Shown here: positions 2,690 to 22,136 of the stretch, piece after piece
Position numbering within the stretch: the stretch's first letter is position 1
Layout: each line of letters starts with the position of its first letter
Assembly: GCA_023271515.1 (NCBI GenBank)
Contig: JALPXQ010000008.1
Span: forward strand, 1 to 26,772
Source of the DNA: Dehalococcoidia bacterium
GTDB taxonomy: Bacteria; Chloroflexota; Dehalococcoidia; SZUA-161; SpSt-899
Length of the DNA: 26,772 nt
Direction: 5' to 3'
Notes under the pieces: generated by a model
Database searches by the model: none
Told to the model about the DNA's origin: nothing
What the model saw: only the letters and a program-made list of their open reading frames with translations
Program-made: the position numbers and the translations under genes

Positions 2690-3806
2690 TGGCAAGTATA
2701 ATAGACGAACTGGAGCCCATCATTAATCCCCGAAGCATCGCCGTGATAGGAGCCTCAGATAATCCCGCTAAGCTGGGCTATCACTGCATGAAGAGCCTGA
2801 AAGAGAGCGGGCTTCAGTCCATATATCCCATAAATCCGCGCTCTTCGGAGATTTGGGGATTTCCGGCCTATTCCTCGCTGAGAGAGATAGATCAGGAAAT
2901 CGACCTGGCTATCGTGATTGTGCCGGCCTCTGCGGTTCCTTCAGCAATAGAGGATTGTGCCCGGAAGGGGATAAAAGGCATTGTCCTTATGACTGGTGGA
3001 TTCAGGGAAGCGGAAGATCTGGCGGGCTCCAGGATGAAATAGGTTTGCTGGCAAACAAGAGTAGAATCAGGGTGATCGGTTCCAACGCATTCGGTCCATC
3101 TAAATGCCTCCTTACCCCGGAATTCCTTGCTACTTGAGGGTAAGCCTTATAAGTCAAAGTGGCGAGATATGCCACCCTCCTTGCTGATGGAATCGGAGAA
3201 AGTAATCGGCTTTTCCAAGATCGTGGACCTAGGCAACCGATGCAAATTTTCCCAACATGCTGGAGTACCTGGCGGTGGACCTGGAGACCAGGGTGATCCT
3301 GATGTATCTCGAGGGGATAGATGATGCCCGCAGGCTTATCGAGATTGCTCGGTGAGTGGCGCCCCAAAAGCCCATAGTAGCCTTCAAGTCAGGAAAGATG
3401 ACCACTGCGGACAGAGCGGCTTATTCTCATACCGGTTCCCTGGCGGGAAAGCATAAGGTCTATCTCGCCGCTTTCAGGCAGGCCGGGATCCTGTTGGCAA
3501 GCGATTTCGAGGAATTGCTGGATATCTGACCCGAACGTTGATGCCCTCTTGTTTCTCTCTGCCTATGCCTCAGCCAACGAGCCCGTAATTAGAGCGCTCG
3601 CTGCAGTGCTGAGGGAGGAGATCGAGGCTCGCCGGAAGCCGATCCTCACCTGCTTCCCGACACCACTGCGAATCTGGGAGGAAAGGGTCGAGCTGGAGAA
3701 GAGCGGCATTCCGGTTTATGCTACGCCGGAGAGGGCGGCTAGATCTCTGGCAGGTTTGGTCTGCTACGGAGATATCCCGGCTTTGGCGCTATTCACGAAA
3801 ACTTGA
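2686..3806 (+). pseudogene. ADP-forming acetyl-CoA synthetase (acetate--CoA ligase) alpha subunit, heavily degraded. It has at least 4 to 5 frameshifts, an in-frame TGA at 3353-3355 and an apparent internal deletion of about 250 nt.
   Basis: An N-terminal CoA-binding domain is intact in ORF 2686-3042 (SIAVIGASDNPAKLGY...IVPASAVPSAIEDCARKGIKGIVLMTGGF). Homology then continues across three frames: LQDEIGLLANKSRIRVIGSN, HLNASLP, ISQSGEIC, GIGFSKIVDLGN, LEYLAVDLETRVILMYLEGIDDARRLIEIAR-TGA-VAPQKPIVAFKSGKMTTADRAAYSHTGSLAG. The C-terminal tail is in ORF 3549-3806. Total length is about 1.1 kb against about 1.4 kb expected. Confidence 0.7.
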
Positions 3807-4872
3807 ACCTCCCATATTTTTCCACCATTTTTTGGTCAATGGAAGGTCCCGTCTTGTGGATCACCTCCACTAAGTCTCTCATTTCCACATCCCTTGCAAT
3901 GCCGGTCTGGATATTCTCTCTAAAGGGGATCAGCGAGGCTTTAAGGCAGATCTGCCTTATGTCCGCGCCGCTATGACCCTCGGTCATCTGTGCCAGGTTG
4001 TCGAAATCAATATCCTCTGCCAGCGGCTTTCCCTGGAGATTCAATTCAAAAATCTTTTTCCTCGCCTGAGAATCAGGGAGAGGAACATAGATAGTCTCGT
4101 CAAATCTTCCCGGTCTAAGGGCAGCATGGTCAATGCTCCATGGCTCGTTGGTTGCCCCGATGAAGAGGAGGTTCTCATTTTTCGACTCCATCCCCTCCAT
4201 CTCCGCCAAAATCTGAGGAACAACCCGTTGCATCACCGTAGACCCGGAATCCTTCCTCTTTGGAATCAGTGCTTCAACCTCGTCAATAAAAATCACCGCT
4301 CTCTTCTGATTCCTCGCCGAAGAAAACAGCTTCGCTATATTCTGCTCACTCTCCCCGACCCACTTGCTCATAATTTCGCTCGGCTTTATGCTGAAGAATA
4401 CCGCATCCACTTCATTGGCAACCGCCTTTGCGATGTAAGTCTTGCCTGTGCCAGGGGGACCGTAGAGCAAGATTCCTCCCCCGGATCTGATCCCAAACCT
4501 CTTCGCCTCTTCAGGATATAGAAAAGGATAGATTATCTTGTTCTTGATCTCCTCTTTGATATTCTCCAGTCCTGCCACGTCGTCGAAGGTTACGGCAGGT
4601 CGTTCCTGCAAGATGAATTCTGCACCTTTTCCCCTTCCCGCAGCAGCCTCCTTTTCCTTAAGAGTGATAGACTTTGCCTTCTCCAGGAGTTTCTGGGCGT
4701 TTTCAACCCTTATCAGCTTCACCCTCCCCTGCGATTCGGAAGACGCATTAAAGAGTTGTCTGCTCGCCTGCAGGTAATAGTCTCTGGCTTTTCGCAACTC
4801 GCTTTGCGCTTCCGCCTTCATTGCCTCGGCGATATATTCTTCGGCTTTTTGAAGAAATACGTCAATGCTCAT
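3793..4872 (-). CDS. vps4: MIT-domain AAA+ ATPase, Vps4/CdvC-like (copy 1).
   Basis: It has an N-terminal three-helix MIT-like region. It has Walker A GPPGTGKT, Walker B IFIDEVE, arginine finger RPGRFDE and a Vps4-type C-terminal helix. Its start overlaps the stop of the upstream ESCRT-III-like gene. Confidence 0.85.
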   Translation of the reverse strand: MSIDVFLQKAEEYIAEAMKAEAQSELRKARDYYLQASRQLFNASSESQGRVKLIRVENAQKLLEKAKSITLKEKEAAAGRGKGAEFILQERPAVTFDDVAGLENIKEEIKNKIIYPFLYPEEAKRFGIRSGGGILLYGPPGTGKTYIAKAVANEVDAVFFSIKPSEIMSKWVGESEQNIAKLFSSARNQKRAVIFIDEVEALIPKRKDSGSTVMQRVVPQILAEMEGMESKNENLLFIGATNEPWSIDHAALRPGRFDETIYVPLPDSQARKKIFELNLQGKPLAEDIDFDNLAQMTEGHSGADIRQICLKASLIPFRENIQTGIARDVEMRDLVEVIHKTGPSIDQKMVEKYGRFKFS

Positions 4873-4875
4873 CGC

Positions 4876-5475
4876 CTACCCCTTCCGCATCATGTCCTCG
4901 ACTTCCTTGATGCCCCTGGAAATCCTCTCATCCAGGCCCTTTTCCTCAGTCTCTGCCTCCCCTTCCATTGTTTTTACAATTTCGTTGATGTCTCTATCAG
5001 AGAAACCTTCGGCACTCAAGATACCCTCGCTGGCCATGTCTAAAGTAGTGGACAACGCCTCGTCGATGCCCTCTGCCTGTGCCATCGCCTTCTCAAATTC
5101 CACCTGCATGCCGGCGATCTTTTCTACATCTGGGCCTTCGGTAATGGACTCGCTTATGTCCTTAGCAAAGGTTACAAAATCCCCGGAGATCTTGACCATC
5201 TCCCGTTGAAGTCTGGCCTCGTCCATCAGCAGGAGCATCCGCTGTCCCTTTCTTATCCGTTCCTGCAAGACCAGATATTTGGCAGCCTGCCTCTTCAAAA
5301 ACTTCTCTTCATTTAGTCTAGCCGCCTGCCTTCCCTGATCGTATATCGTCTTTTGCAGGTCCATCAGCTTCGAGATGTAGCCTTTAACCCTTGCTTTCGC
5401 CTTCCTGTACCTTATCTCCCTCTCGATCTCCTTCTCTTCCCTTGATTTTCCCTTCAACTTTTTCAATATGCCCAT
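4876..5475 (-). CDS. ESCRT-III/Snf7-like protein (copy 1). It is an all-helical protein of about 200 aa with a basic N-terminus and an acidic C-terminal tail.
   Basis: The N-terminus is MGILKKLKGKSREEK..., the sequence is predicted coiled coil, and the C-terminus is acidic (EGEAETEEKGLDERISRGIKEVEDMM, MIM-like). It is translationally coupled to the Vps4-like gene. There is a GGAG Shine-Dalgarno site 7 nt upstream of ATG 5475. Confidence 0.6.
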   Translation of the reverse strand: MGILKKLKGKSREEKEIEREIRYRKAKARVKGYISKLMDLQKTIYDQGRQAARLNEEKFLKRQAAKYLVLQERIRKGQRMLLLMDEARLQREMVKISGDFVTFAKDISESITEGPDVEKIAGMQVEFEKAMAQAEGIDEALSTTLDMASEGILSAEGFSDRDINEIVKTMEGEAETEEKGLDERISRGIKEVEDMMRKG

Positions 5476-5561: not shown

Positions 5562-6299
5562 TCAACCTTCAGCCTTCAGCCTATCCACCTGAGTAGCTAG
5601 GATTACAGTTATATTGTCCCTTCCGTCGGTCTCTTTCGCAGAGTTTATGAGCTTCTCGCAGGCTTCATCGAGGTCTTTTGAACTTATTATGATCCGTCTT
5701 ATTTCTTCACCCCGTAAGGAATCTGTCAATCCATCAGAGCACAACAACAGATATTGACCACAAATCCGGATCTCGTAGAGGTCAGGTTTTATATCGGCAT
5801 CCGTTCCCATCACCCTGGTAATGATATTCTTTTCCGGATGATCAAAGGCCTCCTCTTCTGAGATAATACCTCTATCCACCAGTTCTTGAACGAAGGAATG
5901 GTCCTTGGTCTGCTGCTTTATCTCCTCTCCTATCAGATAAGCCCTGCTGTCGCCTATATTTGCGATCACACATCTTTCTTCTTCAATCAAGGCAGCCACC
6001 AGCGTTGTGCCCATATTACTATAGTCTGGATTTTCCCGGGCTAAACTGTATATCTCCCTATTTGTCTTCTCAAAAGCCTGCTGAAGCAGCATCCTGAAGT
6101 CAGTAATCCCCTCGCTAAATCCTTTGTTCACCGCCTCTTCCAGCTCTATCACTGCCAGCCCACTGGCAATCTCGCCGGCGCTGTGCCCGCCCAGACCGTT
6201 GGCAACGGCAAGGAGGTAAATGTCGCCGAAGCGCGTTACCGCAAGGCTATCCTCGTTATTTGCTCTCTTCCCGCTGTCAGTAAGAGATGCTATCTTCAT
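5562..6299 (-). CDS. PP2C-family (PPM) Ser/Thr protein phosphatase.
   Basis: AVANGLGGHSAGEIAS, GTTLVAALI, ANIGDSRAY and LLCSDGLTD are the conserved PPM metal-binding motifs. Its start overlaps the kinase stop by 4 nt. Confidence 0.9.
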   Translation of the reverse strand: MKIASLTDSGKRANNEDSLAVTRFGDIYLLAVANGLGGHSAGEIASGLAVIELEEAVNKGFSEGITDFRMLLQQAFEKTNREIYSLARENPDYSNMGTTLVAALIEEERCVIANIGDSRAYLIGEEIKQQTKDHSFVQELVDRGIISEEEAFDHPEKNIITRVMGTDADIKPDLYEIRICGQYLLLCSDGLTDSLRGEEIRRIIISSKDLDEACEKLINSAKETDGRDNITVILATQVDRLKAEG

Positions 6300-8548
6300 C
6301 CTTCTGTCCTCGCTTTGCGGATAATTCTATCCATATCGTTTAATCTACGGGGTTCTAATGTTGGATCACGATGCTTAATGCAATGATTAAGGACACCGAT
6401 TTGCTGGTCGATCAAATCCTGTGTCTCACTGGATTTCACCTGGGTTTTTAAGGAATTCAGGTAATCGATACATTTGTTCAGCGCACTCAAGCGCGTCTCA
6501 CGATGTTCCGAGCTGCTATATGCCTGTCGTAAGAGCATATCCGACATCTCGCAATAGAGCGTTATTCTCTCCAGTCGTTCTATGGTTATCTTCACCTTTT
6601 GTTTGTGTTCTATTTCCAGAACGTCTGCCAAGTGATTATGGAGCTCTTCTATGCTCTGGTAGCGCCTCTCCTTTTCCTTCTCCAGACAGCGCATGATTAC
6701 AGGTTCGACGAATTTAGCTTCCTGGTTAATGCTTGAGGGTAAGGGAGGATCGTGCTTCTTTATTTTCTCCATTATGGCAGATTCATCGGCGGCTTCAAAG
6801 GGAGGCTTGCCGGTTACCAGCTCATAGAATATCTGACCGAGCTGGAATATGTCGGTTCTTCCATCTACCTTCCCTCCGCTTATCTGCTCCGGCGTGGCAT
6901 AGAGGGTAGTGTATCCTCTGGCTTGATCATCTGACTGCTTTGAAGCCCGTATCATCTTTGCCAGCCCCCAATCCACGATTTTCGGCTCCTTATTACCATC
7001 AAGCATGATATTGCCAGGCTTCAGGTCGAGGTGAAATACAGGTCGCGGTCTTCCATGAGCATATCTTAAGCCATCTGCTATCTTGAAGATCAGATGACCC
7101 GCTTTTCTCGGATCAAGCGGTATCAAATCCTCAATCGAGCCAGCCAGAAGCTCCATCTCGATATATGGCCTGGGATAAGAGCTATAGTCGTATATCGTGG
7201 CTATGTTCTTGTGATCGAGTTCCTTCCAGATTTGTATTTCGTCTATAAAGCTCTTGGCGGTCTTTTTATCATGGTACCTGGCGATCTTTATGGCCACCAT
7301 GGCACTGTCCTTCTTCCGCTGTGCGCGGTACACCCAGGAACTTCCACCCTCGCCGACGTATTTAGGTTGATGATAGTATTCATGGAGCTCCTCCGGAAAG
7401 GCGAACATCGGTTGGCCTTTTCTTATGCCAGGTCCAACTGCGGGTTCCAATGTTATATCCTCAACCTTTATTGGCTTTCGTACCTCGTCGCCTTTTGCGA
7501 CAGCGCTCCTTGCGCGGACCAGAGTATCGGTGCACAACCTTATATTTGCTGTGCAGGCATCAGTTGACTTTTCGATCCTTGTCTTTTCCTCTTCCAGACC
7601 GTGTTCGGCAGCAAGCTCACGAATGCCGTCGAAGTGTGTCTGAGCATTCCTGTATTGGTCTCTTGCTTTGAGGTATTCTCCCTTGTTGAACCACTTCTCG
7701 GCATCCTCGATTAGCCCGTTCCCGATTTCAATCTTTCCCTCCACCAAGCCTCTGTATGCCGTTGTTTTCAATTGGTTGTAGGTTGCGTTATCCGAGGAGA
7801 ACGATTCCAGGTACTTTATCACTTCTGAGAAGGCATTCTCCTTTTCCTTGCCTTTTTCCTTATTGGCCTGCTCGATTAACTTATCTCCCTTGTGCAGGAG
7901 GCATGCCTCGATGCTAACCTCCATGTTTGCTACTGCTCGATTGATCGTTGGCTCGTCCTCAAACCCGAATTTGCCTGCAACCCCAGCGCCTTTTGCATAC
8001 GTCTCTCTCGCTGACCGGAATCCTTCTCTGGCAGCATCGAAATCTCCTGCCTCAAACATTCTTTTCGCCTCGTTCACGGTCTTGTTTGCCTCATCAACGA
8101 GTGCAGCCATCTCTTTCCGGGCTCTGTTTACCGCAGCAGTCTTTATATCTTTCTCGATGCTTCCCATAGAGGGTTTAAGAGCCTCAACTATCTCCCCCTC
8201 GTTCCTTTCGCTCGCCAACTGCACCACACGGGTGTATTCTTCGAGAGCCCTTTCCCAGAGCGTTATGGCTTCTGAGTAATCTTCTCTCTGGTATGCCTCG
8301 CTGCCATCGTCGGCTATCTTTTTCGCTCTATCCAGAAGATATTCGGTAGTGGGTCTAGCGGCCAGTTGGGCCTTCTTGGTCAGCTCCAGCGCTCTTGCGA
8401 ACTCCTTCTTCTTCACCGATTCCGCCGCTTCCTTGAGGAGGCTCCTTGCCTCATCCAGGTTGGCGCCTATATGGTGCTGATTTATCAGACCTCTAGCAAC
8501 CTCCACTTCCTTGTGCAGCCCTTCGAGTTCTTTCACAATACTGCCCAT
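6296..8548 (-). CDS. Hanks-type Ser/Thr protein kinase with an N-terminal helical-repeat region of about 380 aa and a C-terminal tail of about 100 aa.
   Basis: The kinase domain spans about 6600-7400. Motifs are GEGGSSWVY, VAIK, HLDLKPGNIM, DWGLAK (a DFG variant) and YATPEQ. The start is ATG 8548 or TTG 8551, with GGAGG 8 nt upstream. Confidence 0.9.
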   Translation of the reverse strand: MGSIVKELEGLHKEVEVARGLINQHHIGANLDEARSLLKEAAESVKKKEFARALELTKKAQLAARPTTEYLLDRAKKIADDGSEAYQREDYSEAITLWERALEEYTRVVQLASERNEGEIVEALKPSMGSIEKDIKTAAVNRARKEMAALVDEANKTVNEAKRMFEAGDFDAAREGFRSARETYAKGAGVAGKFGFEDEPTINRAVANMEVSIEACLLHKGDKLIEQANKEKGKEKENAFSEVIKYLESFSSDNATYNQLKTTAYRGLVEGKIEIGNGLIEDAEKWFNKGEYLKARDQYRNAQTHFDGIRELAAEHGLEEEKTRIEKSTDACTANIRLCTDTLVRARSAVAKGDEVRKPIKVEDITLEPAVGPGIRKGQPMFAFPEELHEYYHQPKYVGEGGSSWVYRAQRKKDSAMVAIKIARYHDKKTAKSFIDEIQIWKELDHKNIATIYDYSSYPRPYIEMELLAGSIEDLIPLDPRKAGHLIFKIADGLRYAHGRPRPVFHLDLKPGNIMLDGNKEPKIVDWGLAKMIRASKQSDDQARGYTTLYATPEQISGGKVDGRTDIFQLGQIFYELVTGKPPFEAADESAIMEKIKKHDPPLPSSINQEAKFVEPVIMRCLEKEKERRYQSIEELHNHLADVLEIEHKQKVKITIERLERITLYCEMSDMLLRQAYSSSEHRETRLSALNKCIDYLNSLKTQVKSSETQDLIDQQIGVLNHCIKHRDPTLEPRRLNDMDRIIRKARTEG

Positions 8549-8553
8549 CAATT

Positions 8554-9735
8554 CTACCTCCTGCCTTGATTTACAACCTCATCTATCATCTCAAGAATCG
8601 CTCTCTTTTTCCTTTCAATCTCCTCCCTCTCGGCCTTCTTCTTTCGCCCGTAGGAAAAAATGCCTATTGACAGGATCACGGCAAAAGCAAGTGTCCCCAC
8701 GTAGATGTGATTGTTATTGATCGTCGGTGCAAAGTCTCTATAGTTGACCACGCCGTCTTGATCCAGGTCCATGGCAAGAGACTTTGCCCTTGTTGCCATC
8801 TCAAATGCCGTTTTATAATCTGCATCCTCAAATGCCTCCTCACTACCTGAAAGCAAAGCCTCGGCCATGGCTACATTGAATCCTCGTAGCTCTGCTACTC
8901 TAATTGCCTCCCTTGCCTGGTCGATCCCTTCAATGGCCAGTTCACCGTCTCTTTTAATCGTTTCTGCCGTAGTCTTTGCCTGCTCAGCAAGGGTTTTGGC
9001 GCGTCCAAAATGCCCTCCTGCAAGCGCCCTCTCGGCCTGCCGAAGAAGACCCTCAGCCTCTGTCATATCGAGCCCTTCGGCTCTCCCCCTTTGAATCGCT
9101 TTGGCGATCTCTTCAATGATAGCGGCAATTAGTGCTTCTTCCGATTCAACCTTTATCAGCCAGAGATCACTCTCACCTGCGCCAAAAGACATTGTCCAAC
9201 CGGTTACGATAAATCCGCCGTCATCGGTCTGCTGGACTGAGAGGCCCGAATCACTTTTTGCGCCACCGAATGTGCGGCTCCACTCCTTATTCCCCGCAGA
9301 ATCGGTCTTTATCAGCCAGAGATCCGACTCACCTGCGCCGAAAGACCCTGTCGTTCCGGTTACGATAAACCCGCCGTCAACCGTCTGCTGGACTGAGCAG
9401 CCCCAATCCCTGGCTGTGCCACCGAACGTGCGGCTCCACTGCTTATTACCCGCAGGATCGGTCTTTATCAGCCAGAGATCCGACTCACCTGCGCCAAAAG
9501 AGCGTGTCCAACCGGTTATGATAAATCCGCCGTCAGTTGTCTGCTGGACTGAGAGGCCCCGATCAGATTCTGCGCCACCAAATGTGCGGCTCCACTCCTT
9601 TGCCGGCGCTCGCTCTGTGGTCTCGTCAGCCACGGCCACGCCTACGAGAGGGAAAGGGAACGCCGTTACCAGCGCGGCAACCATAAGCACCACTGCCACC
9701 CCAAACAGGATTGGTGTCAGACTTTTCATGATCAA
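8554..9735 (-). CDS. Type-I membrane surface protein. It has a signal peptide, 3 tandem blade-like repeats of about 47 aa, a helical repeat, a DxDGVVN motif, a C-terminal TM helix and a conserved basic cytoplasmic tail.
   Basis: There is an N-terminal hydrophobic signal. There are three copies of [42 protein letters not shown]. The C-terminus is [55 protein letters not shown]. Confidence 0.75.
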
Positions 9736-10042: not shown

Positions 10043-11653
10043 CTACCCCCTGCCCTCATTTACAACCTCATCTATCATCTCAAGAATCGCTCTCTCTTTC
10101 CTTTCAATCTCCTCCTTCTCGGCCTTCTTCCGTCGGCGGCGAAAAGAAACGCCTGCTGATGCAGAGATAAGGCCCAGGACAAGAAGAAATGCTCCCATGT
10201 AGATATGATTGTTGTTGATCGTCGGTGCAAAGTCTTCATGGTTGACCACGCCGTCCCGATCCACATCTAAGGCAAGCGATTTTGCGGTTGCGGCCAGTTC
10301 TACCGCTCTTTCATACTCTCTATCATCAAATGCGCTCTCAGCCTGAGAAAGCGAGCTTTCGGCCTCCACAACATCGAAACCTTTTGCCCTTTCCTGAGAG
10401 ATTACCTGCCTTGCTTCTTCGATAGAGCTTCTTGCCAGTCTCAGTTCTCTGGTAATTTCTTCCGCTTTTGCCTTTGCCTGCCGGGCAAGGCTTATGGCTC
10501 CTCCAAAATCCCCTCCTGCAAGTGTCTCCTCAGCCTGCGAAAGTACACCCTCCGCCTCGGTCATATCGAGTCGTTTGTCTATCCCCTCCTCGATTGCATC
10601 CCTGGCCTGGTTGATCGCATCAAGCGCTGCCTGAGCTTCCCCTTTTACCTCTCGTGCGGTAACCTCTGCCTGCTGGGCAAGGCTCATGGCTTCTCCATAA
10701 TCCCCTCCTGCAAGCGCCCTCTCGGCCTGCCGCAGGAGATCCTCAGCCTCAGCCATATCGAGCCCTTCGGCTCTGCCTGTTGTTATTGCCTCCTTTGCTT
10801 GCTCGATCTGCTCCAGTGCCGCTGCCCTTCTAATCCCTTCTACCTTAGCCTCTGCCTGCTGGGCAAGGCTTATGGCTTGTTCAAAATCCCCTCCTGCAAG
10901 TGCCCGCTCGGCCTGCCGAAGGAGACGCTCGGCGTCTGTCATATCAAGCCCTTCGGCTGTTCTGGCTTCGATTACTTCTCTTGCTTTGTCGATCTCTTCA
11001 ATCGCTGCTTCAGCATCCTCTTTAATGCCTTCTGCTTTAGTCTTTGCCTGCTCAGCAAGGCTTACGGCTCTTTCAAAATCGTCTGCTGCAAGCGCCCTCT
11101 CGGCCTGCCGGAGGATATCCTCAGCTTCAGCCATGTTGAGCCCTTCGGCTCTCCCGGCTTCGATTGCCTCCCTTGCCTGGGCGATGGCATTGATGGCAAA
11201 TTGAGGCATGGGGATTTCAACAAGGTTATGGTGGATGATCTGCGCGGCATGCTGGACTATTATCCGCGGCCGCACCCTATCGGCGAGGATAGAAACCTCG
11301 CCCGGGACTTGAATAAGGTTATGGTGGATGATCTGCGCGGCATGCTGGATTATAATGCGGGGCATCACCTCACCTGCGAGGCTCACCAGGGTCTCCGCAG
11401 GCTCCACAAGGTCAAATTCTTGCACGCTGTCGGCGTCTTCCACGACAATCTCAGGGCCGCTTGCGGCATGCACCCTGGAATTTACCGCCAGATATGCCGA
11501 TACGGCCAGCACCAACGCGGCCAGAATCAAGACCATCAGGGGGATTCTCCCCCTGAAACCCCCTGAAGAGCGGTCATCCTTAGGATTTTTAAAGGAGCTT
11601 CGCTCCTTTATTCTCCAGGGCGGTTTACACTGGTTTATCCTTATCCTGAACAA
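10043..11653 (-). CDS. Type-I membrane surface protein, paralog of 8554-9735. It has a signal anchor, a 2x 31-aa tandem repeat and 5 helical repeats of about 37 aa. It ends with a DxDGVVN motif, a TM helix and the conserved tail.
   Basis: The C-terminus [72 protein letters not shown] is nearly identical to the upstream paralog at the DNA level. It contains repeats of the form [32 protein letters not shown]. The true start may be the internal Met near 11536 (MVLILAALVLAVSAYLA). Confidence 0.7.
   Translation of the reverse strand: MFRIRINQCKPPWRIKERSSFKNPKDDRSSGGFRGRIPLMVLILAALVLAVSAYLAVNSRVHAASGPEIVVEDADSVQEFDLVEPAETLVSLAGEVMPRIIIQHAAQIIHHNLIQVPGEVSILADRVRPRIIVQHAAQIIHHNLVEIPMPQFAINAIAQAREAIEAGRAEGLNMAEAEDILRQAERALAADDFERAVSLAEQAKTKAEGIKEDAEAAIEEIDKAREVIEARTAEGLDMTDAERLLRQAERALAGGDFEQAISLAQQAEAKVEGIRRAAALEQIEQAKEAITTGRAEGLDMAEAEDLLRQAERALAGGDYGEAMSLAQQAEVTAREVKGEAQAALDAINQARDAIEEGIDKRLDMTEAEGVLSQAEETLAGGDFGGAISLARQAKAKAEEITRELRLARSSIEEARQVISQERAKGFDVVEAESSLSQAESAFDDREYERAVELAATAKSLALDVDRDGVVNHEDFAPTINNNHIYMGAFLLVLGLISASAGVSFRRRRKKAEKEEIERKERAILEMIDEVVNEGRG
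11222..11407. repeat. 93-bp tandem direct repeat (2 copies) within surface protein gene 10043-11653.
   Basis: aaggttatggtggatgatctgcgcggcatgctgga occurs at 11222 and 11315. It encodes the duplicated 31-aa segment PRIIIQHAAQIIHHNL. Confidence 0.8.
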
Positions 11654-12595: not shown

Positions 12596-15500
12596 TCAGG
12601 CAGCTCGTCTTTTTATGAGTAAGACGATCAGTCCTAGCGCTGCAATTCCGGCTGCGATCCACGGGTTCGCCTGAACAAGCTGAATAAGCTGAGCAAGTAG
12701 TCTTTCACCAATGCGAAGTAGTCTTTCGCCAATATCAAGTAGTCTTTCACCAATGTCTGGTGCCTGGGGCAAGACCACCTCGACTATTGTTGAGAAACTA
12801 TTTATCACCCCATCGTTATCTGCTATCGTCAGTGTTACCATATAGTCTCCAGCAACTGAAAAGCTATGCTCGATTACCCTACCAGTTCCAGTGGTTCCAT
12901 CCCCAAAGTCCCATTCATAGGATATTATCTCGCCATCAGGGTCAGACGAACCAGACGCATCGAAGGTGATGGGCTGATCTACAATCATCTCCTCCGGGGA
13001 GTATGCAAAAGATGCGATTGGTTGTTGAAGCATTCTCTGTTCCTCAAATACCCCGTCGCCATCAGCATCCGTCTTCATGGTAACCCCTGCCTGGACGGGA
13101 ACTTCTGTATCAATAACAAATCGGTGTGTTGTAGTCTCTGTCGTGGGGACATCAGTAATAGCAAAACTCTCAATTTGTCCTTCCACGCTAGAAATCGTTG
13201 TTAATCGATATGTTGCCTCCTCTATACCTGCAACCTCTAAGTAATAGATGCCAGTTGGAGCAAATATAGTAACAATCTTATTTTCCGTATCATACATTGA
13301 ATATGGAATTTCTTCTTTTACTACTCCATCTACTAAACCAGTAACTCGTCCCTGAGAATCGTAAACCCGTAACTCTCCAGGACTGGCAAATGCTACAACT
13401 CTGAGGTCAGCAGGCAATATATTCAGAAATTCTCTTCTGATAAAATGTGCTGCGATATTCTTGTGAGAATCCATCCTGATAGTGGTAACGGGTGCATGTA
13501 CATCTGCAATAGTCCCAACATCTCCTTTCCAACCAACAAACTTCCAACCTGGAGCAGGATATGCCCTAATTTCTACTTGTTTTAGTTCTCCTCTAGGAAA
13601 AATAGTATCTCCAGGTTTATTAACTGTCCCCTCGCCAATAATATCCATTGAAAGTGTTACATCTTCGGAAATGAAGGTAACCAATGCAAACCCTATTATT
13701 GGATTCCCCCTCCAAAAATCTTGATATACACCTATTCCAAGACTTACAAGAGTATTTCCTGCAGCTCTAATAAGATTAATAGGAGCAAGGAGACGGTCTA
13801 TAACCCACCCTTTACCATACTCCCTAACTGTATCAGATTTTGCAATATCAAGTAAAAGTGGTGGTAAAGAATTAAGTACGACTTCACGCCCTTCAGGACA
13901 GAATACAATAGTTCTAGGAGTTAACACAAGCTGCCCCATCTGTAATAATGTTCTAGATTGAATATATTCTACAACTTCTTTTAAATGCTCATGATCCTCA
14001 AATTCTATATAAAGTTGTAATGCAAACTTAGGTTCAGCCGGAACTCCAAATACTCCTAATGCTGCTGATAATAATTCCATTGCTATTGCAACGTGCACTA
14101 TCGCCATTTCAACTTCCAATATATCTCCAGGTAGAAGAGTATTAAGCTTCACCGTGTATGTTACGCTTCCCTTAGGAGGGACTAGTCTAAAATAATTACC
14201 AAAACTTTCTTTCTGAAGATGTTCCATAAAGCCATCTATACTTTCTAAAGTTACATCTTCCCTAATAAACCGAGGTTTAAATTCAACCCACATATCTAAA
14301 GAGTTGTGTACAGTTAGCTCAACAATGCGCTTCTCCTCATCGACATATATAGGAGCAGATCCCCTTATACGCCAATCATCACCGCTAATTTTAAAAAACG
14401 CTGTTTTATATGGTAGTGCCGGCGGGGTGACTTCTAGTGCCTCGGTGAAGGTCCTTGAAGCCAGGTGCCGATCCCCAGCATCTATCCTGCCGTTGTTGTT
14501 GACATCCTCCACCAGAGAGACGAGCAGGTTATACCTGCCTGGGGGTGCATCTGTCGGCATTACAAACGAACGCTGGACGGTGCTGGAACCTGAAACGATG
14601 GCGACCTGGCGATCATTGGCCGGATCGCTCAGAGGCGATCTCCCGGGCAACTGGATGCTGGCCCCCAACAGAACCGTCCTTGTGGGCCCTGGATTTGCCA
14701 CGTTGTATGTAATGGTGATCGTCTCTCCGGCCGCAGCGGTGCTGGGTGACGGGTGAGCAGATGTGATTGTTGGGTCTGGTGGTGGCGCCGGCGGGGTGAC
14801 TTGTAGTGCCCCGGTGAAGGTCCTTGAAGCCAGGTGCCGATCCCCGGCATCTATCCTGCCGTTGTTGTTGACATCCTCCACCAGAGAGACGAGCAGGTTA
14901 TACCTGCCTGGGGGTGCATCTGTCGGCATTACAAACGAACGCTGGACGGTGCTGGAACCTGAAACGATGGCGACCTGGCGATCATTGGCCGGATCGCTCA
15001 GAGGCGATCTCCCGGGCAACTGGATGCTGGCCCCCAACAGAACCGTCCTTGTGGGCCCTGGATTTGCCACGTTGTATGCAATGGTGATCGTCTCTCCGGC
15101 CGTAGCCGTGCTGGGTGACGGGTGAGCAGATGTGATTGTTGGGGCTGGTGGTGGTGCCGCCAGTAGACGAAGCCTGCTGGGCGTGGAGCTGCCAATGTTG
15201 TTATTCTCATTCGATTCGGTGACTTGTTTAAAGCCATCAACAAAGACTGTCACATAGTAATCCCCCGGGGCAGGAACTGCTGATGGGATGGCGTTAGTGG
15301 TGATAGTGAGCGTTCTAGAGGCACCAGGACCGAGCGAGGCTACAGGGAAATTGCCCAAACCGTGGCGAGTTCCCCATCGACGGGTGGATAGAGAAACACG
15401 GAGGTGGAATGAGCCCGAGGCGGCATCACCCCGGTTTTTCACTGTAAAAGCAACCGAAATTTCATCGCCGTGAGCTACCTCAGCAGGGTCGAAGGTGACG

Positions 15501-15631
15501 CGGGTCGTCACAGTAAGATCAGGGAGTCCAGCGCTGGCTATCGCGGTGGGTACTGTCAAAGCGCTCGCGCTGAACAGCAGCAGGGTGGTCATAAGGATGG
15601 CGAAAATGCTGAGAGTAGTTCTCTTTTGCAT
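12596..15631 (-). CDS. Large surface adhesin-like protein of 1011 aa. It has a signal peptide, a CARDB-like domain, 2 identical Ig-like repeats of 123 aa, a central domain of unknown function, a PKD domain and a C-terminal TM anchor preceded by 3x IGERLL.
   Basis: The N-terminal signal is followed by a CARDB-like segment (PDLTVTTRVTFDPAEVAHGDEISVAFTVKNRGDAASG). The PKD motif is ITFDASGSSDPDGEIISYEWDFGDGTTGTG...GDYMVTLTIADNDG. The C-terminus is PWIAAGIAALGLIVLLIKRRAA. There is an AGGAGG Shine-Dalgarno site upstream of ATG 15631. Confidence 0.8.
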   Translation of the reverse strand: MQKRTTLSIFAILMTTLLLFSASALTVPTAIASAGLPDLTVTTRVTFDPAEVAHGDEISVAFTVKNRGDAASGSFHLRVSLSTRRWGTRHGLGNFPVASLGPGASRTLTITTNAIPSAVPAPGDYYVTVFVDGFKQVTESNENNNIGSSTPSRLRLLAAPPPAPTITSAHPSPSTATAGETITIAYNVANPGPTRTVLLGASIQLPGRSPLSDPANDRQVAIVSGSSTVQRSFVMPTDAPPGRYNLLVSLVEDVNNNGRIDAGDRHLASRTFTGALQVTPPAPPPDPTITSAHPSPSTAAAGETITITYNVANPGPTRTVLLGASIQLPGRSPLSDPANDRQVAIVSGSSTVQRSFVMPTDAPPGRYNLLVSLVEDVNNNGRIDAGDRHLASRTFTEALEVTPPALPYKTAFFKISGDDWRIRGSAPIYVDEEKRIVELTVHNSLDMWVEFKPRFIREDVTLESIDGFMEHLQKESFGNYFRLVPPKGSVTYTVKLNTLLPGDILEVEMAIVHVAIAMELLSAALGVFGVPAEPKFALQLYIEFEDHEHLKEVVEYIQSRTLLQMGQLVLTPRTIVFCPEGREVVLNSLPPLLLDIAKSDTVREYGKGWVIDRLLAPINLIRAAGNTLVSLGIGVYQDFWRGNPIIGFALVTFISEDVTLSMDIIGEGTVNKPGDTIFPRGELKQVEIRAYPAPGWKFVGWKGDVGTIADVHAPVTTIRMDSHKNIAAHFIRREFLNILPADLRVVAFASPGELRVYDSQGRVTGLVDGVVKEEIPYSMYDTENKIVTIFAPTGIYYLEVAGIEEATYRLTTISSVEGQIESFAITDVPTTETTTHRFVIDTEVPVQAGVTMKTDADGDGVFEEQRMLQQPIASFAYSPEEMIVDQPITFDASGSSDPDGEIISYEWDFGDGTTGTGRVIEHSFSVAGDYMVTLTIADNDGVINSFSTIVEVVLPQAPDIGERLLDIGERLLRIGERLLAQLIQLVQANPWIAAGIAALGLIVLLIKRRAA
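14400..15137. repeat. Perfect tandem duplication, 2 copies of 369 bp differing by a few SNPs, inside adhesin gene 12596-15631.
   Basis: The block starting near 14421 (ggcggggtgacttctagtgcc...) recurs at 14790. The two ORF-track antisense ORFs 14304-14756 and 14763-15125 are near-identical. The duplication encodes a duplicated Ig-like module of 123 aa. Confidence 0.9.
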
Positions 15632-15752: not shown

Positions 15753-17009
15753 TCAGCCTACCTTATATTCCCTGGCAGCCTCTATCAACTCCCTGAACAT
15801 CTCACCCTCTCCCGTTCCGCTTAATTCTTTGACTGCTTTTGGATACCAAGAAGCAAGCACAGTCTTCTTCCCTTTCAACACCTGGTCGAAGTCTTCCATC
15901 GTTATCTCTCTCCTGGGGGTCATCTCTTTGATCCTCTCCCCCAGGGGAATCATTGCCGCCTTCTCACAGATATCTGCGATCTCAGCGCTGGCATATCCCT
16001 CGGTGATCTCTGCCAGTCTCTGCAGACTGACTGATCTGGAGACAGGCTTATTCTTCAGATTTATCTCCAGGATTTTTTTGCGAGCCTCAATATCGGGATG
16101 GGGGAGGAAAACCGTTGTATCGAACCTCCCTGACCTTCTCAAAGCAACATCAACAGCCCAGGGGCGATTGGTAGCTGCAAGAACAAGATAGCGTTTAGTT
16201 GTGCCTTTCGCTTCCAGACCATCCATCTGTGATAACAGCTCGCTTACCAGGCTTCTCTCGTGCCCCTCCATTGACCCGGAGCGCTCCCCTGCCAGGGAGT
16301 CGAACTCATCGAAGAATAACATTGCCTTTTCATAGCTTCTGGCAACGTTGAAGATTTCCTTGATGTTTTTCTCGCTTTCTCCTACGTATTTGTCCTTGAT
16401 ATCGCTGCCTTTTAGACTGACGAAGGCTGCATCGGATTCGGCCGCCGCCGCCGCCGCGAGCATCGTTTTTCCGCATCCCGGAGGACCGTATAAGAGAATC
16501 CCCCCACCCGGTTTAACCCCAAAGTACTCGTACTCCTCCGGGTACTTGAAGGGATAAACAATTGCCTCCTTGATGTTCTCCTTTACTCTGGCTAAACCGG
16601 CGATATCGCTGAATCTTATCTTCGGTTTTTCCGCCAGGATCAGACCTTTAACCCTCTCCCCTGTCTTTTCTTTCTCTATCCTCCCCCCGGGTGTCTTTTT
16701 AACCCCTTCCTCCGGTGGTATCATGCCATCCGTATATACTTTAACAGTCCCTTCTTTGAGCCCCTCGGCGATCTCCCTGAATTTCTTGGATCTGTCCAGC
16801 AGCTCTTTTCGCTTATCCCTCGGTGACATATCTGCAAGATGCTCCAGGAATTTAGCGCACTTTAAGTACTCCACACTGGCTTTCGCCATGCTGCCTTCAT
16901 CATAGTGCCTCCTGGCCAGATTAAGGGATTTCTTATACTCGGCTTGGACCGCATCTCTCAGCTCCATACTTATTCCCTCCATAGTCGGGTTATCGGGTTC
17001 AGGGTTCAC
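15753..17009 (-). CDS. vps4: MIT-domain AAA+ ATPase, Vps4/CdvC-like (copy 2). The likely true start is ATG 16967 (MELRD...).
   Basis: It has an MIT-like N-terminus. It has Walker A GPPGCGKT, Walker B LFFDEFD, RSGRFDT and a Vps4-like C-terminus. The ORF-track start 17009 is GTG. An internal ATG at 16967 is preceded by GGAGGGA with a 6 nt spacer. Confidence 0.85.
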   Translation of the reverse strand: MNPEPDNPTMEGISMELRDAVQAEYKKSLNLARRHYDEGSMAKASVEYLKCAKFLEHLADMSPRDKRKELLDRSKKFREIAEGLKEGTVKVYTDGMIPPEEGVKKTPGGRIEKEKTGERVKGLILAEKPKIRFSDIAGLARVKENIKEAIVYPFKYPEEYEYFGVKPGGGILLYGPPGCGKTMLAAAAAAESDAAFVSLKGSDIKDKYVGESEKNIKEIFNVARSYEKAMLFFDEFDSLAGERSGSMEGHERSLVSELLSQMDGLEAKGTTKRYLVLAATNRPWAVDVALRRSGRFDTTVFLPHPDIEARKKILEINLKNKPVSRSVSLQRLAEITEGYASAEIADICEKAAMIPLGERIKEMTPRREITMEDFDQVLKGKKTVLASWYPKAVKELSGTGEGEMFRELIEAAREYKVG

Positions 17010-17106
17010 GGGTCACGGTTGATGGTTCACGGTTCATGGTTATTTGTCTAACCGTTCAATCTTGATCGCTCTAACCTTGAACCGTGAACCCCGGCAACTT
17101 TGAATC
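16987..17106. repeat. GGTTCA-rich inverted-repeat intergenic element (copy B), in the 5' region of the Vps4-like copy 2 gene.
   Basis: The sequence is gggttatcgggttcagggttcacgggtcacggttgatggttcacggttcatgg...taaccgttcaatcttgatcg...cttgaaccgtgaacc. The arms GGTTCACGGTTCA and TGAACCGTGAACC form a dyad. Confidence 0.7.
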
Positions 17107-17113
17107 TAAGCAG

Positions 17114-17743
17114 CTACAGCGTCTCTAACTCTTCTTCCTCCCTCTCTCTGGCAACTCTCTCTTTTAGCAGCCTCTCAGCTATCTGCTCAGCTTCGGCTTC
17201 ATTTGCCGTTTCCAAGACGTCCATGTATCTCTTTATCTCTTCGTCCTCCTTGGGTTTGGCAAGTAAGCCCAATTCTCCATCTAACATCTCAAGTAAGTTG
17301 TCCACATTCCCTTTCGCTATCTCATTCTGCAGGTTCACTTGTGCCAGAAACTTTTCCAGCTTACTCGCCGGTAGTTTGGTCAGCTTGGTCATTATGCCCT
17401 TATGTGCCAGCAACTCTTGGCTCTCCTGGGTGAAAACCAGATTGTCCACTACTCGAAGTTGGTCGTTGATGTTCTTCAGATACTTGTCGTCGAGTGCCAT
17501 CTCGCGCTCCAAACGCAGCATCTGCCTTGCAGTGCTCCTTTTCTTCGCCTCGCTGCTTTCTCCCGAGCCTTGTTTTATTAGCGCCCTGAACTGCTGAGAC
17601 GCCTTGTCAACCTTTGCTATCCTCAGCTTCTCTTCCCTTTCCAGCCTGATCCTTTCGGCTATCAGGTCATCCTTCTTCAGCTTCTCGAAGGGGTTTCCCT
17701 TTATTTTGTCCAGAATTCCCATTGTGTTTGCCTCCTTTTTCAT
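17114..17743 (-). CDS. ESCRT-III/Snf7-like protein (copy 2). The likely true start is ATG 17722 (MGILDKIKG...).
   Basis: An internal start MGILDKIKG mirrors MGILKKLKG of copy 1 and has an AAGGAGG Shine-Dalgarno site 8 nt upstream. It is all helical with an acidic C-terminus (AREREEEELETL). It lies directly upstream of Vps4-like copy 2. Confidence 0.6.
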   Translation of the reverse strand: MKKEANTMGILDKIKGNPFEKLKKDDLIAERIRLEREEKLRIAKVDKASQQFRALIKQGSGESSEAKKRSTARQMLRLEREMALDDKYLKNINDQLRVVDNLVFTQESQELLAHKGIMTKLTKLPASKLEKFLAQVNLQNEIAKGNVDNLLEMLDGELGLLAKPKEDEEIKRYMDVLETANEAEAEQIAERLLKERVAREREEEELETL

Positions 17744-17771
17744 TTGAGCCAGTTTGTCTTTGCTGTTTGTA

Positions 17772-17879
17772 GCTAGTCAGGTTGTCAGGTTCACGGTTCA
17801 TGGTAGTTTGTCTAACCGTTCAATCTTGATCGGTTGATCGGTGTAACCTTGAACCTCGGAACTTTGAACCTGACTAGTC
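17772..17879. repeat. GGTTCA inverted-repeat element (copy C1), flanked by a perfect 12-nt inverted repeat gctagtcaggtt / aacctgactagc.
   Basis: It has the same core as copy B (caggttgtcaggttcacggttca...tctaaccgttcaatcttgatcgg...taaccttgaacctcggaactttgaacctga). It lies upstream of the ESCRT-III-like copy 2 gene. Confidence 0.7.
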
Positions 17880-17925
17880 TTTGCTGCCTACATTTCATTC
17901 TTTCCTGTGACTTCTCACCTCCTTT

Positions 17926-17997
17926 CAGGTTGTCAGGTTCACGGTTCAATCTTGATCGGGCTAACCTTGAATCGTGAACCCCGGAACTTTGAACCTG
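17926..17997. repeat. GGTTCA inverted-repeat element (copy C2).
   Basis: The sequence is caggttgtcaggttcacggttcaatcttgatcgggctaaccttgaatcgtgaaccccggaactttgaacctg. It is a direct repeat of the C1 core 147 bp downstream. Confidence 0.7.
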
Positions 17998-18002
17998 AGT
18001 AC

Positions 18003-18295
18003 TTAGCATTGACTTAGCATATTCTCGATGGCAATGCGCTCTTTCTCAAGGAGACCCAATGCTTCATACTCCCCAGCCCATATCATTGCCTCCTGATCGT
18101 CTCCATCAAGACCCTTCTCGAATTTCTTGAGAAATTCTTTGCTGCTCATTCCTGTACTCTGCTCAAAATCTCTCAGCTTCTTCCTTGTGGTAGAGATGCT
18201 CCTATCCAGCAAGAGCTTTTCTCTTTTAAGCGATGCTTCCAACACGCCAACCGCTGTCACAACATCTGGAACCTCAAGCTTTATCACACCCATAT
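18003..18295 (-). CDS. Small hypothetical protein of about 96 aa, the last gene of the six-gene operon.
   Basis: There is a GGAGGT Shine-Dalgarno site 6 nt upstream of ATG 18295 (MGVIKLEVPD...). It lies downstream of 18356-19978. The longer ORF-track start at 18359 is unlikely because it overlaps the upstream gene. Confidence 0.45.
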
Positions 18296-18355
18296 AATTA
18301 CCTCCTACTACCCTCATTTCATCTCCACCTGGTATGTAAGGATTCCCCAAAATTC

Positions 18356-19978
18356 TCACCTCAAATAGCCCCGCTCGAGTCTAACCGTATCTCCAACATC
18401 CACCCCCAGTATATCTCTCACCATCCTGTTGACCTTGATCACATCTCGATCACCGTCATCCAGCGGGCGAACGGTTACAAGATGTTCCCTGCCGGAAAAG
18501 ACAATTCTTGCCCGATCAATCCCTTGCAGACCCAGCCGTTCCATTATCTCTGGGTGAACCCGCACGACATTGCCGTATCTATCCTTCGGATGTGGATGGG
18601 TTACCCGCAGCAGTATCTCAACTGACTGGCTGCAAATTGTCTCCACCATATTGATTGGAATGCCGGTTTCAATTGATAATGCAAAGATCTCTTTTCTCAG
18701 TTGATCTCCCTTCACACCAGCCAACCGCTCCTGCATTTTCCTCAATTCTTCCGGTGCTATGTCAAATCTCTCCGATAGGCTCTTGCTATCTTTCCCTGTA
18801 ATCTTTTCAACGCCATCAGAGGTTTGGGATATGGTTTCAAGATCAGACAGGCTGTCCAGTAATTGTTGCATATGATTTCTCAACCCGGGAAGCTCTGTTT
18901 TCGCCATCGCCACATTCAAGATATCCCTTGCTCTTGCATAATGACGCAAGGACGCATCATCATCCCCGGTATGCCGCAGAAGGTCTGCAAGCAGCATCTC
19001 CTCATAGCCACCAAGTATCGTGCTGAGTGCATCTATCCCCGTTGCGATTTCGGTCTTACCTATCTTCTCAAAGTACAACCTGCTCGCCTCAAATGATGAT
19101 CTTGCCTGGCTGATCTCTGATTGTAGTAGAGATAGGTGATCATCATTGTGGCTTAACATCAGATGCATCAGTTGTGTCAGGTGGGCCCAGCCATTACAGA
19201 ACCTGCTGCTTGTAAATAACCCCTCCCTTGTCTCTTCCGAATCTGCATGGAGAGCTGCTTCATAATACATCTTTGCTGCCGCAAGGAAACGGTGCTTGGC
19301 AGCACGGTAATCCCCTTCTCTGTATGATGCTGCCCCCTCCTGCTCGTTATGGATTGCCATCTCGAGCGGCCTCTTTGTCTCAACGATCTCCTTTGCAGGT
19401 GTAACTATTATGTGGCGACCGATAGGTACTCGGAGGTAATCTTCAAAAGCCAGTCCGTACCTCTCCTCCAGGTAATCTCTCATTCCCTTTGGCAACTGAC
19501 CGAATACCGCATTCTTAGCGATCGGATCCATTGGGACCTGTTCACCAGTTGACTGCTGCAGCTCGATATACACGTGCTCTGGAAGGATCACAAAGATGGG
19601 TTCAAATCCGATGGAGCCGAGCATCGCGGCAAGCAGGATCGCCTGGTCATCACAATCCCCGGCGCTGACCTCCAGTGTCGCCACCGCCGGCTGGAAGTGA
19701 TCACCGGGCGGATCATTGATATACTCAATGTTGTCTCGCACCCAGAGAAAGATCGCCTCAGCCACCTTATTGCGATCCGCATCACTCATCCTCTTGACAT
19801 CAAGCGGCGCATCATAAATCTTCTTCACCACCTCGTATGCCGTCTTCCTTACAACAGGTTCTCGTGAGCCCCTTTTTGCCTGCTCAATCATCTCGGCTAC
19901 CTTCAGTATTTTCCTTGACGGCATAAAATTGAGGGAGCCGCAAGAGGTATCACCCGGGGATACTTTCCCATCTCTCAT
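18356..19978 (-). CDS. Transglutaminase-like cysteine protease domain protein. It has a central TPR-like helical region and a C-terminal Cdc48/VAT-N-like double-psi barrel segment.
   Basis: The transglutaminase-like core motif is SAGDCDDQAILLAAMLGSIGFEPIFV, with downstream His and Asp. The C-terminus NVVRVHPEIMERLGLQGIDRARIVFSGREHLVTVRPLDDGDRDVIKVNRMVRDILGVDVGDTVRLE resembles the Cdc48 N-domain. Confidence 0.6.
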   Translation of the reverse strand: MRDGKVSPGDTSCGSLNFMPSRKILKVAEMIEQAKRGSREPVVRKTAYEVVKKIYDAPLDVKRMSDADRNKVAEAIFLWVRDNIEYINDPPGDHFQPAVATLEVSAGDCDDQAILLAAMLGSIGFEPIFVILPEHVYIELQQSTGEQVPMDPIAKNAVFGQLPKGMRDYLEERYGLAFEDYLRVPIGRHIIVTPAKEIVETKRPLEMAIHNEQEGAASYREGDYRAAKHRFLAAAKMYYEAALHADSEETREGLFTSSRFCNGWAHLTQLMHLMLSHNDDHLSLLQSEISQARSSFEASRLYFEKIGKTEIATGIDALSTILGGYEEMLLADLLRHTGDDDASLRHYARARDILNVAMAKTELPGLRNHMQQLLDSLSDLETISQTSDGVEKITGKDSKSLSERFDIAPEELRKMQERLAGVKGDQLRKEIFALSIETGIPINMVETICSQSVEILLRVTHPHPKDRYGNVVRVHPEIMERLGLQGIDRARIVFSGREHLVTVRPLDDGDRDVIKVNRMVRDILGVDVGDTVRLERGYLR

Positions 19979-19990
19979 TTCATAATCCCC

Positions 19991-20227
19991 CTATTTCTTG
20001 TCCACCCTCGAGCCTATTTTGTATAAGATTGCGGCGAGAACGCCGCTGGCTAAGGCGCCGCCCACGGGGCCGCCTATGGCACTACCCAACGTCAAGCCGA
20101 GAGCGGTTCCAGTGGTCATACCAGCAACCTCAAAAAAGCCGTCAAACTCCTCTGGCTCGCCTTCAACATACCTATACTCAACAGCCTTAACCCATTCTAA
20201 ATGCTGATATATTATCTCGCTGTCCAT
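19991..20227 (-). CDS. Small membrane protein of 78 aa with a glycine-zipper TM segment.
   Basis: The C-terminal half is GTALGLTLGSAIGGPVGGALASGVLAAIL, made of GxxxG repeats. It is wedged between the SPFH gene and the transglutaminase-like gene, with a 6 nt gap to the SPFH gene and 12 nt to the transglutaminase-like gene. Confidence 0.5.
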   Translation of the reverse strand: MDSEIIYQHLEWVKAVEYRYVEGEPEEFDGFFEVAGMTTGTALGLTLGSAIGGPVGGALASGVLAAILYKIGSRVDKK

Positions 20228-20233
20228 CGTAAA

Positions 20234-22048: not shown

Positions 22049-22136
22049 TTTCTATCCTCCTTCTTCTAGGTTCTACGTTGTCTGGTCACTGCCGACCTCT
22101 GACTTCTCACCTGTCACTTCTGACCTCTGTACACGC

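Follow-up and report, generated by a model that had tools for sequence, protein, structure and literature searches.

Tandem three-helix units of the DUF4398 type in surface proteins and kinases of a Vps4/Snf7-like locus on a contig labelled Dehalococcoidia

The window analysed in this work is a stretch of 26,772 nucleotides (nt) from a contig labelled Dehalococcoidia (JALPXQ010000008.1). It encodes two surface proteins, S1 and S2, and two kinases, K1 and K2, and the subject of this study is a helical repeat that all four of them carry. We found that the repeat unit of S1 and S2 is 62-64 amino acids (aa) long and consists of three helices, that it occurs in five copies in S1 and in two copies in S2, and that S1 can be assigned to the Pfam family DUF4398. 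Sequence comparisons show that the kinase copies are homologous to these units. We think that the unit is probably a compartment-neutral structural scaffold, whose sharing between surface proteins and kinases needs no common binding partner, and that S2 (and S1), K1 and the neighbouring PP2C phosphatase would constitute a split receptor kinase. We put the probability of this reading at roughly 70%.

Size, fold and family of the repeat unit

The seven units of S1 and S2 can be aligned without gaps and in one register. At the DNA level Tandem Repeats Finder (TRF) reports the S1 array at 10470-11176, with a period of 192 nt, 3.7 copies and 73% matches, and the array has also a two-unit super-period of 378 nt. 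The repeat had been noticed before in a reading made from the letters of this DNA (in the following: the sequence-only reading), which described a unit of 35-37 aa. This was an underestimate, only helices 2 and 3 had been recognised, and the region then given for S1 (10390-11160) falls within the full array (10244-11197). The copy numbers proposed at that time, five in S1 and one to two in S2, agree with the five units found by us between aa 153 and 470 of S1 and with the two units between aa 203 and 330 of S2.

As the sequence-only reading had suggested, the structure of the repeat was predicted, and it came out helical. In the AlphaFold2 (AF2) model of three S1 units, which has a predicted local distance difference test (pLDDT) value of 96.1, each unit is a three-helix bundle, and helix 3 passes uninterrupted into helix 1 of the following unit, forming 40-residue helices (residues 41-80 and 105-143). 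In this respect the units are similar to the spectrin repeat, which is also a three-helix bundle with helix C running into helix A of the following repeat. They are, however, much shorter than the spectrin repeat (about 106 aa), and no Pfam spectrin match was found at E ≤0.1. The rods of spectrin, Ebh/EbhA, EzrA and BB0323 are likened here to the arrays by their architecture, as an analogy, and no homology is claimed. A search of S1 against the PDB by sequence returned only TM0693, with an E value of 0.06.

The sequence-only reading could not name a family for the repeat. A profile scan does give one: S1 matches Pfam PF14346 (DUF4398) with 56.7 bits over four stretches, the gathering cut-off being 27.9, and its close homolog P0001 matches with 79.4 bits. 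S2, K1 and K2 are tied to DUF4398 via the profile of the S1 units. DUF4398 is described for small, single-domain, secreted bacterial proteins. The units studied here differ from this picture: they stand in tandem, with 2-30 copies linked by continuous helices, and they are found in archaea and Dehalococcoidia, often in cytoplasmic proteins and in kinases. The fold of the unit can be superposed on the solved member of the family, PA2901 of Pseudomonas aeruginosa (PDB 4FM3). In the literature that was searched DUF4398 is mentioned by three papers only, each time in passing, and a literature search on PA2901, 4FM3 and the NCBIfam family SAXB (SoxAX-binding protein) yielded nothing relevant.

Homology of the kinase copies

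To judge the kinase copies we used a hidden Markov model (HMM) built solely from the seven units of S1 and S2. This surface-only HMM matches aa 9-65 of K2 with 32.6 bits and aa 15-66 of K1 with 13.7 bits, and both alignments extend over all three helices, in the same register as the units of the surface proteins. When profiles were compared with profiles (hhalign), the surface units matched the K2 family with a probability of 97.5% (P 8e-12) and the K1 family with a probability of 93.3% (P 2.6e-7). The SAXB profile, which is independent of our alignment, recognises both S1 (51.4 bits) and aa 9-63 of K2 (E 9.3e-5). The orthologs of K1 score 14-24 bits against the surface unit profile, and distant relatives such as P0014 (24.0 bits) and the kinase of the metagenomic locus L003 (20.6 bits) score even higher than K1 itself. 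Such behaviour is what one would expect of true homologs.

The sequence-only reading had itself considered the alternative that the similarity is nothing else than generic composition below significance. That the kinases resemble the surface proteins merely by an Ala/Glu/Leu-rich helical composition is, in our opinion, very improbable. The score of K1 is admittedly low in absolute terms, and the further K1 segments quoted earlier (aa 85-102, 152-176 and 280-311) gave only 0.2-2.2 bits, which is not significant. But not one of 5000 composition-preserving shuffles of the kinase N-termini attained the real score of K2 or K1; the shuffle maxima were 11.7 and 14.0 bits, to be compared with 38.0 and 20.0 bits for the same kinase N-terminal segments in unshuffled form. 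The remaining coiled-coil or helix-rich proteins of the window reached at most 3.4 bits with the surface-only HMM, and the N-terminal MIT regions of the two ATPases AAA1 and AAA2, used as a negative control, failed to match the units (hhalign probability <7%). The hhalign probabilities, the single register through three helices, the existence of intermediates scoring above K1 and the match of the independent SAXB profile to K2 are equally at odds with a purely compositional similarity. Generic composition is thereby ruled out for K2 and for the first unit of K1, while for the three further K1 segments it is the likely explanation at the level of sequence.

From the profile, shuffle and hhalign evidence it appears that the sequence-only reading was right in seeing one module in the extracytoplasmic proteins S1 and S2 and in soluble kinases, and in recognising a copy at the N-terminus of K1. 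The second copy that it placed in K1 (AKRMFEAGDFDAAREGF, aa 152-176) could not be upheld by sequence (2.2 bits); in the AF2 model this segment occupies an equivalent helix-loop-helix.

Distribution of the unit on the two sides of the membrane

It had been suspected that the topology of the kinases was misjudged. We found no sign of this: the maximum hydropathy in a 19-residue segment is 0.69 in K1, 0.83 in K2 and 1.25 in a complete K2 ortholog, values indicating no membrane segment, as opposed to 2.78 in S1 and 2.57 in S2.

Word-indexed searches with S1, the N-terminus of K2 and the N-terminus of K1 found only 9, 1 and 4 proteins, respectively, mostly from sister genomes, and the family came into view only with an exhaustive profile search. 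Among 1.84 billion cluster representatives this search identified 1468 with the unit at E ≤0.001 and 460 at E ≤1e-10. Architectures were counted in the best 149 of the 1468 relatives. A large majority (108/149) have no membrane segment; their median length is 1454 aa, they contain up to about 30 units, and some have zinc ribbons. In 30 of the 149 the units are followed by a membrane helix and form an ectodomain stalk, with a signal peptide and a propeller head ahead of the units and a PN..DFAPxINN motif just before the membrane helix. A kinase domain is present in three: P0082 and P0049 are receptor kinases, and P0058 is a soluble kinase of the K2 type with six units and a beta-sandwich. The cassette of units plus sandwich known from K2 was found in more than 50 of the 149. 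In the receptor-kinase relatives the membrane helix separates the units from the kinase domain, from which it follows that units of the S type are extracytoplasmic, whereas in the K2-type relatives the units are joined to the kinase without a membrane segment between them. The numbers of relatives without membrane segment and with ectodomain stalks show that the unit is used freely on both sides of the membrane.

The longest relatives are giants of about 1500 to 3900 aa (e.g. P0023, P0037, P0039) with 10-30 units and no membrane segment. Many of them contain a K2-like beta-sandwich and a C-terminal zinc ribbon, and several are from Thermoplasmata archaea. All named giant relatives are annotated as hypothetical; they would be an uncharacterised family of cytoplasmic rod proteins.

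Structural scaffold or common binding partner

The only columns that are invariant between the surface and the kinase copies are apolar (I, A, L, A), which fits a structural building block better than a shared binding site. A common binding partner, as put forward in the sequence-only reading, is not what these columns and the architectures of the relatives (108/149 without membrane segment, 30/149 as ectodomain) point to.

As a scaffold, the arrays would be stiff rods in which the bundles are stacked as they are in spectrin, Ebh or EzrA, with a rise of roughly 3 nm per unit, a value estimated from the 40-residue connecting helix that spans two bundles. In S1 and S2 the rod would serve as a membrane-proximal stalk holding a variable head off the membrane; S2 would have the SBBP propeller as its head and S1 the His-rich repeats of 31 aa, and the stalk would end in a motif of DxDxDG-DFAPxINN type, one membrane helix and a conserved cytoplasmic tail. 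In sister genomes the number of units varies from 5 to 8 in S1-like and from 1 to 3 in S2-like proteins, and such a change of copy number is expected of a spacer. Inside the cell, divergent units would be reused in kinases, in the K2 type as 1-6 units followed by a beta-sandwich and the kinase domain, and in the K1 type as one unit followed by longer, MIT-like bundles.

It could be argued that the units are a sensor which binds a ligand or a partner and is common to the surface proteins and the kinases. They do occur in the ectodomain of true receptor kinases (P0082, P0049, L004), and a loop motif, G-x-(D/N)-(L/M/V)-x-EAE, is kept between the surface and the kinase copies. We nevertheless consider this explanation improbable, as the surface and kinase copies sit in different compartments, the majority of the relatives are giant arrays in the cytoplasm with 10-30 units, the columns invariant between the two sets are apolar, copy number is free to vary between sister genomes, and units are absent altogether from some tail-bearing partners of K1-type kinases.

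Some points must be noted that weigh against the scaffold reading. S2 alone (15.1 bits) and the K2 ortholog (17.0 bits) remain below the DUF4398 cut-off, and K1 does not match the family. A propeller surface protein of a Hydrothermarchaeales archaeon (L009:2-1225) has a unit-like segment (15 bits) after its membrane helix, that is in the cytoplasm, directly before the conserved tail, so even among the surface proteins the unit is not bound to one side of the membrane. Finally, the function as rod or spacer is inferred from the predicted structure and from copy-number variation, and the units may be binding modules.

The repeat itself is hardly new, since its domain family is already catalogued and has a solved structure. 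What is new is the tandem use of DUF4398 in two compartments: a family listed as of unknown function would emerge as a rod-forming tandem repeat employed on both sides of the membrane.

Gene order and a possible split receptor kinase

A search with the N-terminus of K1 yielded seven species-level loci, five from Dehalococcoidia, one from Hydrothermarchaeales and one from Halobacteriota. In these loci, taken together with one metagenomic locus, the recurring gene order is one to five membrane proteins, a K1-type kinase, a PP2C phosphatase, a Snf7-like protein and a Vps4-like ATPase, with some loci lacking some of these elements. In all eight loci (L003, L005-L011) a membrane protein with the conserved tail is encoded directly upstream of the K1-type kinase, and the PP2C gene follows the kinase wherever the sequence extends that far (L003 and L007-L011).

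In S1 and S2 the tail motif, ..KxxEI(I/L)xMI(D/E)E(V/A).., comes after the single membrane helix. One to five otherwise unrelated membrane proteins upstream of each K1-type kinase have it as well, in Dehalococcoidia and in archaea, even where these proteins have no units. Since the members without units carry it too, it is the tail, not the repeat, which is the element common to the surface proteins of the system. The conserved tail could be a docking or sorting signal.

Three proteins, P0082, P0049 and L004:94-3207, combine in a single chain a signal peptide, a propeller, four units, a DFAPSINN motif, a membrane helix and a kinase domain; P0082 is close to a Methanosarcinaceae protein. In these fused receptor kinases, relatives from archaea, an S2-like ectodomain is joined to a kinase domain of the general Pkinase family. 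From the fused receptor kinases and the conserved gene order we infer that S2 (and S1), K1 and PP2C may represent a split receptor kinase in a Vps4/Snf7-like locus. The three components would act together inside this membrane-remodelling locus, and the bundles of K1 would possibly dock on the tails of the surface proteins. The order of tail-bearing surface protein, K1-type kinase and PP2C offers a testable model of how surface proteins might signal to a Vps4/Snf7-like machine.

A related possibility, which can coexist with the rod, is that the N-terminal bundles of the kinases (K1, perhaps K2) are MIT-like docking modules. [quoted passage not shown] We regard both the docking modules and these targets as somewhat unlikely. 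Pfam MIT matches aa 73-115 of K1, but weakly (15.4 bits, cut-off 30); the S1 units are exactly at the cut-off of Pfam NRBF2_MIT (29.2 bits) and P0001 is above it (34.4 bits). Docking would be in keeping with the one to five tail-motif membrane proteins upstream of every K1-type kinase, also where the ectodomains have no units, and with a locus encoding Vps4-like ATPases and a Snf7-like protein. On the other hand, the MIT regions of AAA1 and AAA2 have no profile similarity to the units (hhalign <7%), and the tail profile scored -3.1 bits on the Snf7-like C-terminus. Compared with the MIT-bearing kinases ULK3 and Atg1/ULK1, the MIT match of K1 is below threshold, and its partner with an MIT-interacting motif (MIM) is only putative. 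The S1 and S2 units are closer to DUF4398 than to MIT.

Two further candidates were rejected. That the units are the MIT domains of the ATPases of the same locus was dismissed at the sequence level, with an hhalign probability of less than 7%. That the tails of S1 and S2 mimic the MIM-like C-terminus of the Snf7-like protein was dismissed on the score of the tail profile there (-3.1 bits).

The Vps4/Snf7-like locus and its host

Judged by its gene content, the window is probably an ESCRT locus of archaeal type, and its contig bears the label Dehalococcoidia. AAA1 matches NCBIfam CdvC over nearly its full length (aa 8-355) with 257.9 bits, which is below the equivalog cut-off of 650, and Pfam MIT at aa 7-69 (E 0.007). 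In the family of the Snf7-like protein (E3a) four of six members match Pfam Snf7, the best with an E value of 1e-6, and the copy in the window does so with E 0.14 over aa 29-178. This match of family members is the sole signal for E3a; searches of E3a and E3b against PDB sequences, and of the E3a profile, gave no matches. Five independent assemblies have a locus of this type on contigs assigned to Dehalococcoidia. E3a shares 75% identity with its Hydrothermarchaeales ortholog but only about 35% with the orthologs of other Dehalococcoidia, a pattern that suggests recent transfer between the domains or mis-binning.

Archaeal ESCRT loci with a Ser/Thr kinase and a phosphatase and with SPFH zinc-ribbon and Ig-like zinc-ribbon proteins have been described (Makarova et al. 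2024, PMC11188069). The window has in common with those loci the Vps4-like ATPases, the Snf7-like protein, the kinase, PP2C, the SPFH protein with coiled coil and zinc ribbon, Ig-like zinc-ribbon proteins and PQQ-like propellers. It differs in that the kinases of the described loci are membrane-anchored and have Ig-like repeats. A term search of PMC11188069 found no mention of spectrin-like repeats, DUF4398 not being among the terms, and a literature search for Dehalococcoidia with ESCRT returned nothing relevant.

It is tempting to put these elements together. Variable surface proteins marked by a common tail, K1 bundles docking on the tails, PP2C and the Vps4/Snf7-like machine might form a split receptor kinase that reports on surface cargo, or sorts it, for an ESCRT-like apparatus; this would be an archaeal-type system in Dehalococcoidia, apparently transferred from archaea, as the high identity of the Snf7-like protein to its Hydrothermarchaeales ortholog suggests. 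We consider this complete picture unlikely. If it is true, MIT-bearing kinases such as ULK3 would have a prokaryotic counterpart in this system, which would also be a counter-example to the view that bacteria have no Vps4 plus ESCRT-III systems. What is also new is the surrounding system: contigs with a bacterial label encode surface proteins that share the tail, together with a kinase whose bundles are MIT-like and a Vps4/Snf7-like machine. The loci assigned to Dehalococcoidia bear on the question whether bacteria are truly devoid of ESCRT-type systems.

Features of the window

The features discussed above are collected in Table 1. All genes from 3793 to 26772 are on the minus strand.

Table 1. 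Positions of the surface proteins, the kinases, the phosphatase and their parts in the window
Feature	Amino acids	Positions (nt)	Strand	Remarks
S1 gene		10043-11653	minus	536 aa, from the translation
S1 signal or anchor helix	40-65
S1 His-rich 31-aa repeats	92-148	11210-11380
S1 unit array (five units)	153-470	10244-11197	minus
S1 unit borders		11006-11197, 10814-11005, 10628-10819, 10436-10627, 10244-10435	minus
S1 motif of DxDxDG-DFAPxINN type	463-482	10208-10267	minus
S1 membrane helix	483-504	10142-10207	minus	
S1 conserved cytoplasmic tail	505-536	10046-10141	minus	tail HMM 32.3 bits
S2 gene		8554-9735	minus	393 aa, signal peptide at the N-terminus
S2 SBBP beta-propeller repeats (three)		9142-9594	minus	NCBIfam SBBP-repeat match; TRF period 156
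S2 unit array (two units)	203-330	8746-9129	minus	98.4 and 93.7 bits against the unit HMM; gap-free
S2 motif of DxDxDG-DFAPxINN type		8710-8769	minus
S2 membrane helix		8650-8709	minus	
S2 conserved cytoplasmic tail	363-393	8557-8649	minus	tail HMM 35.8 bits
K1 gene		6296-8551	minus	soluble Ser/Thr kinase of 751 aa; starts 2 nt past the S2 stop codon
K1 N-terminal unit, divergent	12-66	8354-8518	minus	surface-only HMM 13.7 bits
K1, rest of the all-helical N-terminal region	69-353	7493-8347	minus	longer helix-loop-helix bundles
K1 MIT-like bundle	about 69-143	8123-8347	minus
K1 kinase domain	393-640	6632-7375	minus	Pfam Pkinase E 7.9e-43
PP2C phosphatase gene		5562-6299	minus	Pfam PP2C_2 E 3.9e-16; immediately downstream of K1
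K2 gene, 5'-truncated		25086-26772	minus	at least 2 units, beta-sandwich, kinase domain
K2 preceding unit, C-terminal 13 residues		26733-26771	minus	cut by the contig end; reads TIAKEANERIEGRL
K2 complete unit	7-66 of the mechanically called open reading frame	26535-26714	minus	surface-only HMM 32.6 bits
K2 beta-sandwich	71-170	26223-26522	minus
K2 kinase domain	200-442	25407-26135	minus	Pfam Pkinase E 1.4e-43

In K2 the copy described by the sequence-only reading is real, but its location at the N-terminus is not: the reading frame stays open as far as the window's last base, and what precedes the copy (TIAKEANERIEGRL) is the tail of another unit, matching the inter-unit junctions of a K2 ortholog of 797 aa. 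Mechanical calling of open reading frames produced the TTG start at 26732, which is an artefact, and the contig probably broke within the 195-nt repeat of K2. The ortholog, which is complete (L002:733-3126, from a sister genome), begins with MGLFDSLFGRKGK and consists of 3-4 tandem units scoring 25-34 bits each, the sandwich and the kinase domain, without a membrane segment. A neighbouring paralog, P0010, has one unit, the same beta-sandwich and a zinc ribbon.

In the AF2 model of K1 the helices of the unit are at residues 2-24, 32-47 and 51-65. The helical N-terminus of the K1 type is found also without a kinase: in P0014 another C-terminal domain is attached to it, one that is similar to the C-terminal end of a repeat protein of L003 (7722-9512). 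The K1-type helical region acts as an independent module.

The heads of the surface proteins are repetitive, too. The histidine-rich part of S1 (..PRIIxQHAAQIIHHNL..) consists of two repeats of 31 aa with a DNA period of 93 nt, and 3-4 copies are present in sister genomes. PF27144 is listed in the precomputed annotation of homologs of S1; local Pfam scans did not report it. The SBBP repeats are 52 aa long and have a DNA period of 156 nt; their number differs between sister genomes, from 3 to 8 copies (S2, P0005-P0008, L005). Surface proteins of the S1 and S2 type alter their repeat numbers fast.

The regions 3793-5475 and 15753-24871 of the window contain two sets of a Vps4/CdvC-like AAA ATPase and a protein of about 200 aa. 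Further genes of the window code for an SPFH protein in which zinc ribbons accompany a coiled coil, for a zinc-ribbon protein with a beta-sandwich and for a transglutaminase that carries a CDC48_N domain. A further surface protein, of 1011 aa and with CARDB/PKD domains (12596-15631), is internally duplicated over a long stretch of about 125 aa, and the G+C content of its gene is 0.40 at 13001-14000, compared with 0.50-0.54 on both flanks.

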